A stretch of 64,000 bases of DNA, taken from positions 51,467-115,466 of IMG/VR virus record IMGVR_UViG_3300021957_003133. The stretch is one strand, 5' to 3'. Made by a program: the position numbers and the translations under genes. Origin of the DNA: a virus. The notes below the pieces were generated by a model. It worked only from the letters and a program-made list of their open reading frames with translations. It made no database searches and had not been told where the DNA came from. How positions within the stretch are numbered: the stretch's first letter is position 1; each line of letters begins with the position of its first letter. This document shows, piece after piece, positions 3,274-27,016 of this stretch.

Positions 3274-4115
3274 ATAGGGGATTTTTAACTATAGCACAGA
3301 ACACAGACGGAGTAGACTATCTACGACTAGCATACGCACAGGCCATGAGTATTAAGTTAACTATGCCTGGTAGTCAATATTGTGTTATTGTTGATCAAGA
3401 CACTAACAAACAAATCACAGACGAGCAAAGACTAGTGTTTGATCATGTTCGAGTTCTAGACAAGGACTATGCCAAACAAGATCAGTGGAAGTTAGCTAAC
3501 GAATGGCAAGTGTTTAATCTAAGTCCTTACAAAGAAACAATAAAAGTAGAAAGCGATATCTTGTTTACACGCAGTATAGAACATTGGTGGCACGCATTTA
3601 GGCTACGCGACATAGTGTTAAGTCTAGGTACACGAAATTTTAAAGGCAAACAAGCCAAGTCGAGAGTGTATAGAAAAATATTTGATGCCAATCAATTGCC
3701 GGACGTTTACAACGGATTGATGTACTTTCGTTATAGCGAAACTGCTAGTGAATTTTTTGAGATAGCAGAACAAGTATTTAAACAATGGGAAACAGTTAAA
3801 GGAAATATATTAAAAGGGTTTAGTTATGAAGAAGCATCAACCGACGTAGTTTATGCCATCGCGGCAAAGACACTAGGAGTTGAACTATGTACATTGCCTG
3901 ATTGTGATTTTATCAACTTTACTCATATGAAAAATGCAATCAATGACTGGCCTGATGATAAATCTTGGACTGAAATGATAATGACAGAAGTAGATCTTCC
4001 AATGATACGTATTAACAATGTTAATCAATATCATCCTGTACACTATCAAGATAAAAACTGGCTCACCGATGAAATAATTGAAAGGTATAAAGAATGTTTA
4101 CACAACAAGAATTAG
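3264..4115 (+). CDS. Glycosyltransferase-like protein, paralog of 2500..3273
   Basis: RGFLTIAQN..DYLRLA and SPYKETIKVESD mirror the upstream paralog; FTHMK and HY motifs near the C-terminus. Confidence 0.6.
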   Translation: MSIDRGFLTIAQNTDGVDYLRLAYAQAMSIKLTMPGSQYCVIVDQDTNKQITDEQRLVFDHVRVLDKDYAKQDQWKLANEWQVFNLSPYKETIKVESDILFTRSIEHWWHAFRLRDIVLSLGTRNFKGKQAKSRVYRKIFDANQLPDVYNGLMYFRYSETASEFFEIAEQVFKQWETVKGNILKGFSYEEASTDVVYAIAAKTLGVELCTLPDCDFINFTHMKNAINDWPDDKSWTEMIMTEVDLPMIRINNVNQYHPVHYQDKNWLTDEIIERYKECLHNKN

Positions 4116-6705: not shown

Positions 6706-8044
6706 GGAAACAGACTTAGAGTATAAGCATAGAGTAATTGACATTAAAAGTGAAAGTTTCTGTGCGGCTAAATGGTATAACGCTACTATATGGTTGGGAA
6801 GTGGTATGACTACTAGTTGCCATCATCCGTTGCCACACCCTATTGACATAGAAGCTATTAAAACTAATCCAAGTGCTTTACATAACACTGACAAGAAAAA
6901 ACAAGAACGAGAACAGATGCAGAAAGGTGAACGCCCTAGTGGATGTGAGTACTGCTGGAAAGTAGAAGACATGGGAACTGATGCTATATCAGATAGGGTT
7001 TATAAAACAGTTATATATGAGGACAAAGAAAATGATGAAGCTTTTAACACACCTTGTCAAGAAGATGTTAATCTTAAAACATTAGAGATTGCTTTTGATA
7101 GAACTTGTCAACTTGCTTGTAGTTATTGTAACCCTGCGTTTAGTAGTACTTGGGTTAAAGATGTTAAACGTAACGGAGCATATATTGATTTAGTTTCAGA
7201 TGGTAGGAATCATTTTACTCACACGCACGACAGTAGTCAGTTGTATACTTTTAGTGAAACTAATCCTTACATTGAAGCATTCTTCAAGTGGTGGGAAACA
7301 GACTTACACAAAACATTAAATGAATTACGTATCACTGGTGGCGAACCTCTTATGAGTGGACACACGTGGAAGTTGATTGAATGGTTTAAAACTAATCAAG
7401 GGAGATCAAAAACTAAATTAGCGATTAACAGTAACTTGGCTATCTCTCAAGAAAAGCTCGCAGAGTTTATAGACAGTATACAATCACTTCCACACTTAGA
7501 AGTGTATACCAGTAATGAAAGTGTTGGAGCACAGTCAGAGTATATAAGAGATGGTATAAATTATCTCGAATGGTGTCAAAATATCGAAACCTTAATGGAT
7601 TGTAGTTCTGTAAAAATACTACATGTGATGTTCACTATTAACAGTCTTTGTTTAGACAGCATAACTGATCTATTAGACTATCTTATGAAACTAAAACACC
7701 GGCATGGTAAGTTCAGTCTGAGTTTTAGCTTAAATATATTAAGATTCCCTAGTTTTCAAAGTGCTACAGTACTACCTGATGACATTAGAAATCAGTATAA
7801 AGAAAAATTACAGTCTTGGTTAGATCTAAATAAAGATGATCTAACATTACACGAGTACGAAGTAAATCATGTAGAAAGATTAGTTGATTATTTAGACATA
7901 GTTAAAACTCCGCATGCAGGTGCTGATGAAATAACAACTCTACAGAACGATTTTAAACAGTTTTACAAACAATATGATGAACGTAGAGGAAAGAACTTTA
8001 CAGAAACATTTCCTAGATTAACAGAATGGTATAATACATTATGA
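6689..8044 (+). CDS. Radical SAM protein with N-terminal twitch domain (paralog 2)
   Basis: CQLACSYC; TGGEP; N-terminal CAAKW..SCHH..CEYCW. Confidence 0.9.
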   Translation: MPKIAKETDLEYKHRVIDIKSESFCAAKWYNATIWLGSGMTTSCHHPLPHPIDIEAIKTNPSALHNTDKKKQEREQMQKGERPSGCEYCWKVEDMGTDAISDRVYKTVIYEDKENDEAFNTPCQEDVNLKTLEIAFDRTCQLACSYCNPAFSSTWVKDVKRNGAYIDLVSDGRNHFTHTHDSSQLYTFSETNPYIEAFFKWWETDLHKTLNELRITGGEPLMSGHTWKLIEWFKTNQGRSKTKLAINSNLAISQEKLAEFIDSIQSLPHLEVYTSNESVGAQSEYIRDGINYLEWCQNIETLMDCSSVKILHVMFTINSLCLDSITDLLDYLMKLKHRHGKFSLSFSLNILRFPSFQSATVLPDDIRNQYKEKLQSWLDLNKDDLTLHEYEVNHVERLVDYLDIVKTPHAGADEITTLQNDFKQFYKQYDERRGKNFTETFPRLTEWYNTL

Positions 8045-22420: not shown

Positions 22421-22711
22421 TTATGACGGTAAATTTTTATCTAGTGAAGGAAGTACAAGACTAAAGTAAGTAGCTTCGCCATGCAACTCAAAGCCTACTA
22501 TTTGCTTTCGATCAACTTTACCAGAGTCTGCAACTACATCAATGTTTCCTACATAAAAACGCCCTCGGAGATTCTCGTAAAGCCAATCTGATATTTGCTT
22601 ATTTGTTACTCCAGATAAGTTAATTATAACTTGTTCGAAGTGTGGAGGTAGGTGGGCTAATTCTCTAAGCTGATGTACATTGAGTGGATTTGGAGTACCA
22701 TCTTTAAGCAC
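22421..22711 (-). CDS. Hypothetical protein
   Basis: 96 aa, overlaps the VWA gene stop. Confidence 0.55.
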   Translation of the reverse strand: MLKDGTPNPLNVHQLRELAHLPPHFEQVIINLSGVTNKQISDWLYENLRGRFYVGNIDVVADSGKVDRKQIVGFELHGEATYFSLVLPSLDKNLPS

Positions 22712-23996
22712 TATCTTTTCCTAAATCATAATATGTAGTAATACCAAACGGTGCTTCGATTGTAGTTGATCCGTGTATCACAAACAGTGTATCACAGTAG
22801 TTAGGATCTCCCCATGAATCCCATGGATAACCATCTGTAAACATCACAAACTTTTTAGGTTCGAGACCTTCGGATTTCATGTATTCCCAATTACTGTCAA
22901 AGTCAGTACCACCACCACCGATACATTCATAATCTAACAGTTCGTCGATGTTATCTTCTGTGAATATTTGTGGATTATGTACGGCTGTATCGAAGCACCA
23001 TATATGTAAATTAAAACTACCAAATGCCTCCATGATGCCTTTAACTTCGCTTTTAATGTTATGCAGTGTTTCATCACTCATCGAACCAGATGTATCAATT
23101 GAAAGTGCGATGTCAATCTTTTGTTCTAAATCGTTGCCCGGCAGTATAGCATCCATGTGCCATCCTCTACGACTAGGACGGGCAAATGTATAGTCTGCTT
23201 TGATAGTACTTAATAACTGCTGTTGTAGCAACTCGTTCCAATTTAATTGTGGTGCAGTTAAATCTTTAATCATTTTCCTTACACCACTAGGTAGATTATC
23301 AGCACCCGAGCTTTGTGCGGCTGTCATCACAGCTTCTTTCATTTCGTCTCTGATCTCTTTTCTCTCAGCCGCTGATATTTTCGGCTTAGCACTGCTTTTA
23401 TCTTTGCCATCTCCATCCCCGTCTTTACCTTTACCGGAATCACCTTCGCCATTTTCTTCTCCATCCAAATGTTCATCTATTAATTGATCTAATAGATCAT
23501 CTACATTAATTTTCTCAGCATTTTCGTATAAGTCATCATACACTTCCTCAGCACTCATATTACGATACTTTGTATCAAACAAACCAATTGGAATCTTTTC
23601 ACCAATACGTTGATCTACTAGGTCTTGATTTACACAATAGTCGTCAGCTATGTTCCATAACCTAGGATCTCTGTCTCCACGTCTTCCCATATGATCATAG
23701 ACGCAGTGTAACACTTCGTGACCAATAAGAAACTCTAATTGTTTACTTGGTAATGTTTTAATAAATTCTGAATTGTAGTAAAACTTACGACCGTCTGTTG
23801 CGGCTGTTCCACACCATGCATCAGCGTTAACGATTTCTAAACGTGTAGCTAGATTACCAAAGAAAGGTGCTTTTAGTAATAGTGCGATACGAGCACCAAT
23901 GATTTTCTCACGTGCATCAGCATCAGTTTTTGGATTTGTTTTACAACCTACGAAGTTTTTAAATTCTTCTTTGTTTGCTGTGGTGTCTTTACTCAT
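22704..23996 (-). CDS. Metallopeptidase-like + VWA domain protein (DUF2201-type), MoxR partner
   Basis: TAATDG, HEVLH (HExxH), WNIADD; MIDAS DTSGS, GGGTDF, FTDG. Confidence 0.88.
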   Translation of the reverse strand: MSKDTTANKEEFKNFVGCKTNPKTDADAREKIIGARIALLLKAPFFGNLATRLEIVNADAWCGTAATDGRKFYYNSEFIKTLPSKQLEFLIGHEVLHCVYDHMGRRGDRDPRLWNIADDYCVNQDLVDQRIGEKIPIGLFDTKYRNMSAEEVYDDLYENAEKINVDDLLDQLIDEHLDGEENGEGDSGKGKDGDGDGKDKSSAKPKISAAERKEIRDEMKEAVMTAAQSSGADNLPSGVRKMIKDLTAPQLNWNELLQQQLLSTIKADYTFARPSRRGWHMDAILPGNDLEQKIDIALSIDTSGSMSDETLHNIKSEVKGIMEAFGSFNLHIWCFDTAVHNPQIFTEDNIDELLDYECIGGGGTDFDSNWEYMKSEGLEPKKFVMFTDGYPWDSWGDPNYCDTLFVIHGSTTIEAPFGITTYYDLGKDSA

Positions 23997-24026
23997 TGTC
24001 GGCTCATTCCTTTATTGTATATATGT

Positions 24027-24055
24027 ATTATACTGTCAATCTAACCAAAAGTCAA
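24027..24055 (-). promoter_or_regulatory. Sigma70-type promoter
   Basis: TTGACT-N17-TATAAT; shares TTGACTTTTGGTTA with the promoter at 26632-26660. Confidence 0.8.
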
Positions 24056-24056
24056 C

Positions 24057-24129
24057 TAAAAAGGAGGAAGGATGCTCTAGGTCCAGCTTGTAAGTTAGGA
24101 GCAGTTGGACCGATTGAAACACCCTTCCT
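24057..24129 (-). ncRNA. Long imperfect hairpin/terminator in the MoxR 3'-UTR with an anti-Shine-Dalgarno loop (candidate regulatory RNA)
   Basis: AGGAAGGGUGUUU/GAGCAUCCUUCCU outer stem (G-U pairs only on the minus strand), GGUCCA/UGGACC inner stem, apical region containing UGCUCCUAACU, then CCUUUUU. Confidence 0.6.
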
Positions 24130-24134
24130 GTGAA

Positions 24135-25226
24135 CTATGCTACTGCTTGAACGATATACTTACCAAAGCGTTTATGAAACTCATCAAATGATTTTACTTT
24201 GTTTGGAATAAATGGCAAGTTGTAAACAGTTAGAGCTACTCTCACTCCCATAACAGTAAGCTCTGTTGTAAAGTTGTCCATCATAAATCTAAAGAAATTA
24301 TCTACCATGGTATGCCATACTTCATCTTTCTTATCGGTTTTCTTATTATAGGCCTTGAGCTCATAGCACATCGACACAGTCAGAGAATACATAGCTGATA
24401 CTTCTTTTACTTCTAAAGTCTTTACTTTTCCCTCTAAGATCTCAGTGGGATTAGGCATCTTACCTGCAATCTTTCTATGAGCCATAAACTTAATAGCAGT
24501 ACCATCTCCAACAGTACCACTTACTAGATCAGTTTCGACATCAGTAGGAAGATCGTCCCCTAATAGATCACTAACAAATGTCCATGAACGAGGCGTAGCA
24601 AAAGCACGTGAGCTTGATTTAGGATCAAAGTCAAATAAATCTTGTTTAGCAAACGACACGTACCCTACAACATCTTTATGTATGCCATTACTAACTGCCC
24701 ACTTCTGCCACGACTCAAAATCTACTCTCATTTCTAAATGCACAAAACGATTACTTAGTGGTGCTGGCATTTTATAAGTAACACCTTTATCACCTTCTCT
24801 GTTACCAGCGGCAACAATAACAACGTTATCTGGAAGTTCGTACTTACCAATACGTCTGTTTAACACTAGCTGATAAGCCGCGGCCTGTACACTAGGAGCC
24901 GCTGAGTTCATCTCATCAAAGAATAATACTACGATAGGATATTTTGCGGCTAACTCTTTGCTTGGAAGATCAATTGGAGGTGCCCAATCCATTAGACCGT
25001 TGTCTTTGTTATAAAATGGAATACCTCTGATATCTGTTGGATCCATCTGACCTAAACGTAGATCAATCATATGACCTTTCATTTCGTCAGTAATACTTTG
25101 CACTAATTCTGATTTACCTATACCTGGAGGCCCCCAAAGAAAGATTGGACGCTTACGATCAAAACATCTACTTATTGCTACTTGTGCTTCTTCACTTGTG
25201 ACTGTTCTATTCTCTGTTGCTGACAT
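24135..25226 (-). CDS. MoxR-family AAA+ ATPase
   Basis: Walker A GPPGIGKS, Walker B LFFDE, AAGNR, PLSNRF, TPRSW. Confidence 0.9.
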   Translation of the reverse strand: MSATENRTVTSEEAQVAISRCFDRKRPIFLWGPPGIGKSELVQSITDEMKGHMIDLRLGQMDPTDIRGIPFYNKDNGLMDWAPPIDLPSKELAAKYPIVVLFFDEMNSAAPSVQAAAYQLVLNRRIGKYELPDNVVIVAAGNREGDKGVTYKMPAPLSNRFVHLEMRVDFESWQKWAVSNGIHKDVVGYVSFAKQDLFDFDPKSSSRAFATPRSWTFVSDLLGDDLPTDVETDLVSGTVGDGTAIKFMAHRKIAGKMPNPTEILEGKVKTLEVKEVSAMYSLTVSMCYELKAYNKKTDKKDEVWHTMVDNFFRFMMDNFTTELTVMGVRVALTVYNLPFIPNKVKSFDEFHKRFGKYIVQAVA

Positions 25227-25271
25227 ATTTTGCTCCTAACTAAATTTGTCTAAATTTTAACTTACAAAAAC

Positions 25272-25300
25272 AGTATAGCACCAAATTGACTATTTGTCAA
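25272..25300 (-). promoter_or_regulatory. Sigma70-type promoter
   Basis: TTGACA-N17-TATACT upstream of MoxR. Confidence 0.8.
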
Positions 25301-25307
25301 TCACTCT

Positions 25308-25511
25308 TTAATGTAACCCGATCGGTGCATCATACACCACAGTCAATCCTTGATCTGACTTTCTCCTCATATATTCAGCCATCATTATTACGCCATTGAC
25401 AATATGTTCGACTTCTTCCTGGGTTTCTATTGGTTCTCGATCTCCCCAAATAGCTTTTACGATACGTTCTTGTTCTTCAGTCATATTAATCCTCTTTTTC
25501 AAATAATTCAA
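25308..25511 (-). CDS. Small hypothetical protein
   Basis: ORF track; the real start may be the internal MTEEQ. Confidence 0.5.
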   Translation of the reverse strand: MNYLKKRINMTEEQERIVKAIWGDREPIETQEEVEHIVNGVIMMAEYMRRKSDQGLTVVYDAPIGLH

Positions 25512-25734
25512 ACTGTTCAGGTAAACTATATACTTTTACCATCTCAACCAATGGATCGTTAAAGTCTGTTTCAATTAATTCTGGGTCGTCATAGTAGTCA
25601 TAAAAGTCACCAGTGTCACTGTCCTCAATATCACCACTGTTAACTTTTTCCCAAGCTTCTTTCTCAGAGTCTGCCTTGACATATTCGTATTCAGTATAAA
25701 TTACTCTACGTTCAAATGTATAATTATTAGCCAT
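25486..25734 (-). CDS. Small acidic hypothetical protein
   Basis: MANNYTFERR...VKADSEKEAWEKV; start re-assigned to 25734. Confidence 0.55.
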   Translation of the reverse strand: MANNYTFERRVIYTEYEYVKADSEKEAWEKVNSGDIEDSDTGDFYDYYDDPELIETDFNDPLVEMVKVYSLPEQFELFEKED

Positions 25735-25880
25735 TAAAAAATAATAATTCCTTTTAAACTTAAATATACTGCGGACAAATACCATAATAACACAGTTCCA
25801 GATCCTACGAATACTATTATAAATCCCAAACTACATTGAGTATCTAAGGCGTCTTCTTTATCTTGTTTACAGTCTCTCAT
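25734..25880 (-). CDS. Small membrane protein, 48 aa (not in ORF track)
   Basis: MRDCKQDKEDALDTQCSLGFIIVFVGSGTVLLWYLSAVYLSLKGIIIF; ATGA and TAATG overlaps with neighbours. Confidence 0.5.
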   Translation of the reverse strand: MRDCKQDKEDALDTQCSLGFIIVFVGSGTVLLWYLSAVYLSLKGIIIF

Positions 25881-26146
25881 TTTTTAAACAATCTGGTAAC
25901 CAGATCGATAGCCTCTTGTTTAGTTGTAGTTTCTGAAGAATTAAGTTCATCTAGTTCCTTTAATAGTTTTTTTCTTTCTTCACTGCTTAACTCCTTCAAC
26001 CTTGGCAGTATCACCTGATCATAGAATTCGCGTCGTTCATTTTCTTTTTTAAGTGTTGTATGTTTTTCAGTTCCAATAAGATCCCAAACGACAAAAGCCA
26101 AAATACATAAACCAAGCCACTCGTACCAAGTAAAGTTAAATTCCAT
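25877..26146 (-). CDS. Hypothetical membrane-anchored protein
   Basis: N-terminal hydrophobic helix. Confidence 0.55.
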   Translation of the reverse strand: MEFNFTWYEWLGLCILAFVVWDLIGTEKHTTLKKENERREFYDQVILPRLKELSSEERKKLLKELDELNSSETTTKQEAIDLVTRLFKK

Positions 26147-26580
26147 TATGATATCACCTTGCCAGTGAAAACATCAACAACTTCTTCATCACCAAACTCA
26201 GCACGCATTTCCATTTGCTCTTCTTCTGAGTAACCATGTTTCTCACGCATAGCTTGATAACGTCCAAGAAACTCTTGAGTTTCAATTGAGTTTTGTTTAG
26301 TTGAACGCTCAAACATTTCCCAAGTAATTGTACCGTCAACCACAGCCATTTCTAAGATGTCTGTTGGAGGAATGTTATTTGATGATATCCAACGAACTTC
26401 ACCTTGTTTACCAAGTTTCCATTCCTTGTTACCTAACACAGCAACACCGTCACGGTGCCATTCACCTTCTGTTACAGAACCACCTCTGATTGCTTCGCCT
26501 TTGTAGTTTAATTTTAGTGCAGTAGAGTTGTATTTTTCTTGTAGTATTTCTAGTGTTGGATTTTCAGTTGTGTGTGTCAT
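26146..26580 (-). CDS. Hypothetical early protein
   Basis: TTAGGAG RBS; upstream sigma70 promoter; C-terminal EMRAEFG..VVDVFTG. Confidence 0.65.
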   Translation of the reverse strand: MTHTTENPTLEILQEKYNSTALKLNYKGEAIRGGSVTEGEWHRDGVAVLGNKEWKLGKQGEVRWISSNNIPPTDILEMAVVDGTITWEMFERSTKQNSIETQEFLGRYQAMREKHGYSEEEQMEMRAEFGDEEVVDVFTGKVIS

Positions 26581-26631
26581 TTTGTCTGCTCCTAAGTAAT
26601 AAAAAATGTCTTTTCCTTATTTCTTACTTAC

Positions 26632-26660
26632 AGTATATGACAAATTTAACCAAAAGTCAA
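26632..26660 (-). promoter_or_regulatory. Sigma70-type promoter
   Basis: TTGACT-N17-TATACT with AT-rich upstream region. Confidence 0.8.
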
Positions 26661-26767
26661 CCAAAATATTGATTTATTTTAAAAGAATAAGTACCAAGCT
26701 AGGACAAGGACAGCTATTTGTGCAGATATTAGTAATACACCAAAAATCCAATGTAAGAATTTCTCCA

Positions 26768-27016
26768 TTAGCCGAACAGATGTCTTGCAACACCGAAGCC
26801 GTATATGACAGTCATTAAGATATTAATAGTTATGAGACTCCATTCTTTCCATTTCCAGGCTACCCAAGTCCACCCAAAACCAGCAAGCCAACCAAACCAT
26901 ACGTTTAACGGATATATATCCATAGCACTCATAGCGGCACATCCTACTGCTAGTGCAGTAGATATCCATTTGGTCCACCATATCAGTCTTTCTTCGTAGT
27001 CTATAATTTCATTCAT
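26768..27016 (-). CDS. Small multi-pass membrane protein (DUF6552-like)
   Basis: KWIST..DIYPLNVW..GWTWVAWKWKEWSL; three hydrophobic segments; TTGACA-N17-TATACT at 27025-27053 ends 8 nt before the ATG. Confidence 0.6.
   Translation of the reverse strand: MNEIIDYEERLIWWTKWISTALAVGCAAMSAMDIYPLNVWFGWLAGFGWTWVAWKWKEWSLITINILMTVIYGFGVARHLFG

Follow-up and report, generated by a model that had tools for sequence, protein, structure and literature searches.

Introduction

To our knowledge, the regulation of bacterial or phage messages via their 3' ends has been described in a handful of cases, mostly concerning single genes in single species. The subject of this report is a candidate for a further case, an RNA hairpin that lies directly after the stop codon of a gene for a MoxR-like AAA+ ATPase in a 64,000-nucleotide (nt) stretch of phage DNA (hereafter the window). 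The window forms the right-hand part of a virus contig of 115 kb from IMG/VR (IMGVR_UViG_3300021957_003133), the estimated completeness of which is 33%. The closest known case is the 5'-3' interaction between the untranslated regions (UTRs) of the icaR mRNA of Staphylococcus aureus, where the 3' UTR carries an anti-Shine-Dalgarno (anti-SD) motif that pairs with the message's own SD sequence, blocks the initiation complex and promotes decay (PMC3868564). The two share a 3' anti-SD sequence directed to the SD of the same message; by contrast, the icaR antisense lies in a UTR of several hundred nt, whereas that of the phage is carried in the apical loop of a terminal hairpin right after the stop codon. 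The phage loop further differs in that it also matches the 5' end of the mRNA and the leader of a second (in relatives, of a third) early gene, in that it is phage-encoded and co-varies across a large phage group, and in that its 11-bp duplex is below RNase III length.

Other bacterial systems share some of these features. In enterobacteria, 3' UTR-derived trans-acting small RNAs and regulation by terminator loops have been described, including the terminator loops of fepA, for which action is reported probably to occur without base pairing (PMC11979758). In Bacillus subtilis, anti-SD-like sequences located hundreds of nt downstream pair with ribosome-binding sites (RBSs), inhibit initiation and promote decay; the same study reports anti-SD-like sequences to be depleted from genes (PMC12697547), whereas that of the phage is conserved and displayed in a loop, implying selection for the interaction. 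Also in B. subtilis, a 5'/3' UTR interaction is reported to control ribonuclease action on the hbs mRNA (PMC5737220). As with the 3' UTR-derived small RNAs, a stable 3' fragment sharing the terminator of the MoxR mRNA could act on other messages; in contrast to the fepA loops, the case for the phage loop is argued wholly from pairing.

Three further systems bear on the comparison. The c4 antisense RNA of phages P1 and P7, the subject of work by Citron and Schuster in 1990, is reportedly encoded upstream of the genes that it targets, is released from the transcript by processing and regulates an antirepressor operon. In the hok/sok system of Gerdes and co-workers, the 3' end of the full-length mRNA is said to pair with the extreme 5' end, rendering the message translationally inert. 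For genes 1.1/1.2 of phage T7, Saito and Richardson are said to have found in 1981 that an early mRNA ends in a sequence complementary to one of its own RBSs, in an arrangement modulated by RNase III.

Results

The hairpin behind MoxR occupies 24065..24129 on the minus strand, which is the strand of all window features given below unless stated otherwise. It consists of a 13-bp lower stem (24129..24117 paired with 24077..24065), an internal loop, a 6-bp upper stem, GGUCCA/UGGACC (24111..24106 paired with 24085..24080), and a 20-nt apical loop, ACUGCUCCUAACUUACAAGC (24105..24086). The interrupted stem has 21 bp in all, made up of 18 Watson-Crick and three G-U pairs, and folds with -28.1 kcal/mol (z = -2.96; 2 of 200 shuffled sequences fold as well), the other strand folding more weakly. 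In this phage the stem is followed by a U5 tract (24062..24058, read from the sequence), which makes up the tail of an intrinsic terminator, the hairpin having the stable, G+C-containing stem-loop and the following U tract by which such terminators are recognized. The original prediction had described a hairpin here with three G-U pairs and a U tract, and both the coordinates and the letters hold on the minus strand. The loop contains the 14-nt stretch ACUGCUCCUAACUU (24105..24092, likewise read from the sequence); its core, GCUCCUAACUUACA, is the antisense (anti-leader) element and includes a CUAA of the YUNR type, loops of which type are reported to speed antisense recognition and pairing.

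The loop is complementary to three sites in the leaders of two early genes. The RBS of MoxR, AGUUAGGAGCA (25241..25231), is its exact complement over 11 nt, so that, as in icaR, the 3' motif and the SD region that it complements are on one predicted transcript. The 3' half of the loop, UAACUUACAA, is exactly complementary over 10 nt to UUGUAAGUUA (25267..25258), a site 5-14 nt past the -10 box that forms the 5' end of the MoxR mRNA as judged from a predicted start site. The third site, also an exact 10-nt complement, is the RBS UUAGGAGCAG (26595..26586) of an early gene for a protein of 144 amino acids (aa) upstream of MoxR (26146..26580). Both RBS matches had been proposed before and agree with the sequence at every position, whereas the mRNA 5'-end target was absent from the earlier account.

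Strong promoters, also part of the original prediction, precede both target genes. That of the MoxR transcript (25272..25300) is TTGACA-17-TATACT with a TG extension and agrees with the consensus at 11 of 12 positions; that of the upstream early transcript (26632..26660), identified by a promoter scan, is TTGACT-17-TATACT. The message of the MoxR gene itself (24135..25226, 363 aa; Pfam AAA, AAA_3 and AAA_5) carries both targets and loop. A terminator scan found no terminator between the 26660 promoter and the hairpin, so the transcripts from 26660 and from 25300 both probably end at the hairpin.

Predicted duplex energies for the loop are -18.3 kcal/mol with the MoxR RBS, -10.9 kcal/mol with the MoxR mRNA 5' end and -16.9 kcal/mol with the RBS of the 144-aa gene. 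Shuffled loops give -6.5 +/- 2.2 kcal/mol against the leader, with 0 of 500 reaching the observed value, and the leader of the VWA gene downstream in the window gives only -6.8 kcal/mol, with no match. The sequence AGUUA occurs twice in the MoxR leader; bulging out the intervening 21 nt leaves UUGUAAGUUAGGAGCA, which is the loop in reverse complement, and bipartite pairing with this collapsed leader is predicted at -18.7 kcal/mol.

A count across the 115-kb contig gave about 26 AGGAG-type RBSs, four reading TTAGGAG and two reading TTAGGAGCA, the latter being those of the MoxR and 144-aa genes, i.e. the two targets that had been named in advance. Both strands of the contig together hold seven matches of at least 10 nt to the 21-nt loop complement, three of them in the two leaders, whose share of the sequence is well below 1%; by estimate, about three such matches would be expected by chance in 231 kb. 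This enrichment within the genome is suggestive, not decisive, because the two target leaders resemble each other.

The hairpin might instead be an ordinary terminator or 3' stabilizer, its complementarity to the leaders being due to chance or being a functionless remnant of an inverted promoter-leader duplication. SD and anti-SD cores do inflate the number of matches, the loop is the reverse complement of a leader collapsed between an AGTTA direct repeat, and in a relative (L150) the antisense of the loop runs on into the promoter-like TTTTGTGTTA. By contrast, loops of 11-20 nt are unusually large for a terminator, the consensus terminator scan allowing 3-8 nt and not listing the 20-nt-loop hairpin, and a terminator-like hairpin is lacking upstream of each of the 13 other strong promoters in the contig, such that the MoxR hairpin stands alone among 14. 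These points, together with the conservation described below, make this explanation quite improbable in our view.

To examine conservation, about 240 loci were gathered via MoxR homologues, hundreds of which are found in uncultured phage contigs. Hairpins of the window type are present in five variants, i.e. that of the window and those of L002/L084/L085, L083, L087 and L088, the MoxR proteins of the four others being 83-93% identical to that of the window. The hairpin arms of the five are 47-91% identical to each other, all of them still pairing; single-sequence folds give 21-23 bp, -20 to -33 kcal/mol and 2-4 G-U pairs, and the hairpins are 1.5-7.7 kcal/mol more stable on the sense strand than on the other. 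The 14-nt loop core is 100% identical across the five variants over these diverged arms, which corresponds to the conserved seed looked for in 3' UTR-derived small RNAs. RNAalifold reports 8 of 22 pairs changed on both sides, from a MAFFT alignment that is partly misaligned, and the stem comparison rests on the single-sequence folds. Identity at 14 of 14 loop positions, over arms that have dropped to about 50% and have been remade so as to pair, argues against a functionless remnant.

The target sites are likewise retained. In the loci of this clade, all sense-strand matches of at least 9 nt to the loop complement fall in 5' UTRs; UGUAAGUUA, at the 5' end of the MoxR mRNA, is invariant across the five variants, and the complementarity to the MoxR RBS is 9-10 nt in the four others. 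In L085 the 10-mer of the third target is kept at the RBS of the homologue of the 144-aa gene, the surrounding leader having changed, and in L087 the loop complement is also present downstream of the hairpin, at the RBS of the gene that follows the next promoter. Closer MoxR relatives (85-96% identical) exist as proteins, and a second viral scan with one of these yielded no closer loci. A search of viral contigs with an exact 23-mer of the hairpin matched only the L002 contig, and the 14-mer GCTCCTAACTTACA gave 118 matches in viral contigs, none adjoining a MoxR gene, which are chance matches.

The variants also bear on whether the AGGAG that the loop presents on the plus strand is the RBS of a real plus-strand gene, an alternative that the original prediction had itself allowed for in the form of a plus-strand TTAGGAG. 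TTG codons lie 3 and 12 nt past this AGGAG, and a 25-codon frame runs antisense to the MoxR 3' end; against this, the spacing is poor, and the frame is shorter than 30 aa and overlaps MoxR in antisense. The sequence past AGGAGCA differs in L087, L088 and L083, and no start codon or frame is conserved in the five variants, so this reading was rejected, with next to no probability left to it. At the base of the hairpin (24056-24080, plus strand), AAGGAGGAAGGATGCTCTAG combines a strong SD with a minimal frame (ATG, a single codon, stop). L083 has another frame here, and this feature is taken as a by-product of the purine-rich stem.

In a second, marine clade (L065, L073, L080, L081, L143, L148, L150, L151 and L154), the MoxR of which is 67-69% identical, the hairpin behind MoxR differs from the window type and has a large loop that begins (G/A)UUUUCUAACUGUAA. 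This loop, GUUUUCUAACUGUAA, complements the leader of its own clade, UUACAGUUAGAAAAC (in extended form (GU)UACAGUUAGAAA(AC)), over 12-15 nt. The window and marine loops share the core CUAACU (AGUUAG on the leader side), containing the YUNR-type CUAA, and beside it are three consecutive compensatory positions, which read UAC:GUA in the window clade and GUA:UAC in the marine clade. The loop thus changes in step with the leader between clades, which also speaks against a remnant.

Three early genes of the marine clade, namely a small upstream gene, MoxR and a VWA-like gene downstream of the hairpin, are each headed by one promoter cassette, TTGACA-N17-TATACT-GTATGT-ACAGTTAGAA, whose conserved start is the target (L073:3650-3740, 3900-3990 and 7475-7560, with the same in L148, L065, L151 and L081). 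The first 11-12 transcribed nt are therefore identical in the three genes, and one 38-kb marine contig has three copies of the 12-mer in leader orientation and a fourth, inverted copy in the loop. A second block of the marine loop, CAUA(A/G)G(G)CUAU, complements the start-codon region of MoxR and has GGG replaced by AAG where CCC in the leader is replaced by CUU (L148 versus L143); it also holds the start codon of the next gene. In L148 (4083-4160) and in the related locus L156 (1816-1880), the start codon of the next gene lies in a mini-hairpin (GCAUA-NNN-UAUGC) inside the large loop, and the 3' arm of the hairpin is coding (MQALNQITGA...). From this layout, hairpins of the L148/L156 type should also gate translation of the next gene.

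Loci of further lineages carry other anti-leader sequences, i.e. loops with 10-nt matches in L028 (GAAAGGAGUA) and L346 (CAAAGGAGUU), a loop with 6 nt of anti-SD and 9 nt of anti-start sequence in L156, and a 9-nt match right after the stop codon in L123. To compare own with foreign leaders, exact matches were sought between each leader and the 90 nt past the stop codon, using 111 distinct loci and 12,148 cross-clade pairs. Complements of at least 10 nt were found in 10 of the 111 loci and in 0.58% of the cross-clade pairs, and those of at least 12 nt in 7 of the 111 and 0.05%, respectively, the positive loci representing about five lineages and not ten independent events. Exact matches were used in place of whole-region duplex energies, which were too noisy for an own-versus-cross comparison, the stems having GGAGG-like runs.

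It may be that the pairing is real and yet protective or activating, with the loop capping the mRNA 5' end (circularization) against 5'-end-dependent decay, or organizing the leader. The match to the very 5' end of the mRNA in both the window's and the marine clade, the location of the target in the marine MoxR leader upstream of the SD, and the precedent that the hbs 5'/3' UTR interaction offers (PMC5737220) are consistent with such a role. By contrast, the strongest duplex in the window is the one that covers the SD, exceeding that with the 5' end (-18.3 versus -10.9 kcal/mol), the matches in L028, L346 and L156 fall on the SD or the start codon, and in short marine leaders the target abuts the SD, inside the ribosome footprint. 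A protective or activating role is accordingly considered unlikely.

A conserved apical loop on a variable stem is also typical of hairpins recognized by proteins, and related phages hold a different conserved structured motif at the same place (see below). The loop could therefore be the binding site of a phage translational repressor or nuclease, its likeness to the leader being incidental. That proposal leaves unexplained why two different loops each match the leader of their own clade, and we regard it as very unlikely.

At the DNA level, the gene, about 1.1 kb long, is enclosed by inverted repeats of 10-15 bp that leave its promoter outside, and fim-type switches use 9-bp repeats, so the repeats around MoxR could be recombinase (inversion) or operator sites. 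However, the distal repeat is always at the apex of a hairpin with co-varying stems that, through their G-U pairs, prefer the sense strand; the proximal partner in the window is split over two sites; the complementary blocks of the marine clade keep their order and are not inverted as a unit; and the arrangement is the same in all of the approximately 240 loci, in a comparison that does not cover orientation relative to the flanks. There is, in our estimation, only a very slight chance that the repeats serve such a function.

The place behind MoxR is occupied by other elements in other relatives. In 31 related loci a distinct conserved RNA follows the MoxR stop, of the form GGAGG-C-[short stem with a GNRA loop, or larger loop with CUCCUUU]-(G/A)UAAGU-CCUCC (e.g. 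L038:5119-5148, L050:5126-5153 and L029:5100-5137, with 28 further loci), often followed by a U tract and with 6 of 8 predicted pairs changed on both sides. A covariance model of this motif (R1) gave 31 matches in 742 kb, solely after MoxR stops and none in the window, and the motif had no match in Rfam. Its outer stem is an SD:anti-SD helix, and with its GNRA hairpin, 6-nt linker and CCUCCUUU the motif bears a loose likeness to the 3' end of 16S rRNA. In several otherwise unlike clades (L054:5102-5125, L351-L359), a short element, CCUGCUAG(U/G), is located right after the MoxR stop, which in group B forms the loop of a small hairpin, CCUG-CUAGUCA-CAGG.

The genes in this part of the window have minus-strand orientation and are preceded by a series of sigma70-type promoters that are close to consensus. 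Downstream of MoxR, a domain search identified its partner gene as that of a DUF2201 metallopeptidase/VWA protein (22704..23996); its promoter, TTGACT-17-TATAAT (24027..24055), has a -35 box that starts at 24055 and abuts the U tract of the hairpin. A second 363-aa open reading frame (ORF) of the contig was considered as a MoxR paralogue and ruled out. Contigs of relatives are 250-375 kb long and matches come from water samples, which points to a jumbo phage of marine or estuarine water; megablast found no match to the region among GenBank phages, and a cultured relative was not found. Pieces 90-100% alike to window 23700-26800 are present in many DNA runs, estuarine and marine, and in assembled marine/seawater metatranscriptome contigs of several studies, and the phage or close strains of it are thus recurrent in marine and estuarine waters. 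The metatranscriptome assemblies cover this region in patches, one RNA contig ending at 24079 inside the hairpin and 23908-24011 being uncovered; such assembled contigs cannot show RNA ends or levels.

Discussion

With a probability of about 0.6, we infer from the sequence comparisons that the hairpin is a 3'-end antisense element that represses early mRNAs, either by fold-back or as a stable 3' fragment. The stem would hold the 20-nt loop open as the reverse complement of a collapsed early leader, such that the 3' half of the loop could pair with the first nt of the MoxR mRNA, and its 5' half and core with the SD region of MoxR and of the 144-aa gene. Pairing over the SD, or inside the ribosome footprint of the short marine leaders, would most likely block 30S binding and may speed decay, the outcome seen with icaR (PMC3868564) and with distal anti-SD sequences of B. 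subtilis (PMC12697547), so limiting the protein yield per early message, and in this phage the hairpin would double as the intrinsic terminator for the transcripts from 25300 and 26660. In as far as the original prediction proposed a hairpin loop antisense to early-gene RBSs, conservation and covariation in relatives lend it support; the shut-off of translation that it envisaged goes beyond the data, and its early regulon extends, in the window, to two target genes and no more.

Pairing could occur within the same molecule, or decay could leave the stable 3' hairpin as a small trans-acting RNA. Because both transcripts should end at the hairpin, fold-back in cis is possible for both target genes in the window. 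By contrast, targets downstream of the hairpin, as in L087 and the marine clade, would need either action in trans or read-through, and they favour, without proving, a stable 3' fragment that acts as a small RNA.

Several observations weigh against this proposal. Pairing in cis would be a long-range pseudoknot, which is beyond scoring by nested folding. The two target leaders in the window are alike and do not count as independent. True compensation is scarce inside the clade of the window; for example, the RBS of L002 has G in place of A, giving a G-U pair with the loop, and in L083 the RBS complementarity is reduced by 2 nt, with the loop core unchanged and the stem grown over the matching loop bases. 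Covariation in relatives, which had been anticipated for loop and RBS, is evident between clades for loop and leader, from the three compensatory positions and the own-versus-cross comparison, and is weak within the clade. The U tract after the hairpin is present in L002 and L083 but missing from L087 and L088, and that of the marine clade is an intercistronic hairpin with no U tract; 3'-end status is thus not general, and the terminator or 3' UTR character ascribed to the element does not hold as a conserved property.

In addition, the leader motif, (U)GUAAGUUAG / ACAGUUAG, is older and more widespread than the loop, being also kept at MoxR in clades (L003-L025, L108, L111, L137 and L149) where the gene is followed by no more than a plain GC-rich terminator or lacks a hairpin altogether, so that conservation of the target is independent of the loop. 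The leader is probably conserved for reasons of its own, be it promoter/start-site function or a binding site, with the loop tracking the leader, and the loop may have begun as an inverted leader copy. Such a duplication origin does not account for the later conservation of 14 of 14 positions over rebuilt stems. In its DNA form the motif, (T)GTAAGTTAG / TTACAGTTAGAAA, is found at the MoxR leaders of L020, L021, L025, L108, L111, L137, L149 and L100, and the same motif is found at VWA-gene leaders (L003:5491-5503, L019:5497-5509 and L089:2044-2056), including those of the VWA gene in the 83% group. L086 has a MoxR 92% identical to that of the window, yet a marine-type leader, UACAGUUAGAAAA; its contig stops before the MoxR 3' end, and a search with its leader for further contigs gave no match. 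If loops track leaders, a leader of this type would be expected to go with a UUUUCUAACUGUA loop.

With respect to the described systems, the element resembles c4 in being a phage RNA co-transcribed with its targets and in having short loops complementary to sequences around the RBS, c4 being bipartite as are the two blocks of the marine clade. The MoxR hairpin has, however, no sequence or Rfam relationship to c4, a search of L001 (window 22550-25640) and seven related loci with the covariance models of Rfam 15 giving nothing relevant at E <= 1. With hok-like systems only the 5'-3' complementarity is shared, MoxR being a 363-aa AAA+ ATPase, and no toxin-like ORF, overlapping reading frame or conserved antisense promoter was found at the locus or its variants. 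The kinship to P1 c4 or type I toxin mRNAs suggested previously is thus not borne out as family membership. The T7 complementarity differs in being, reportedly, a by-product of alternative RNase III cutting in mutants, not a conserved element presented in a loop. The phage element is set apart by its presentation in a loop, its bipartite target (5' end and RBS), its phage origin, the promoter-class leader that it targets, and its covariation across many uncultured phages.

More speculatively, the position after MoxR might be a dedicated riboregulator slot in a large group of uncultured aquatic jumbo phages, filled by at least three structurally unrelated elements (the long hairpin of the window, the intercistronic marine hairpin and the GGAGG...CCUCC motif). 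The loops of the hairpins would co-evolve with the 5' ends of early transcripts and act in trans as a built-in timer, early transcription accumulating an RNA that later shuts the early regulon off. This is offered as a tentative idea, which on present comparisons we are inclined to doubt.

The loci do provide a natural series of compensatory mutants, in that loops and leaders differ between clades and yet match, within one gene family and over hundreds of phages, and this series should be useful for studying the control of translation via 5'-3' pairing or 3'-derived small RNAs. The design, a hairpin-presented anti-leader behind a gene, is simple and portable. The results suggest that control at the level of RNA has a part in the timing of early genes in giant phages.

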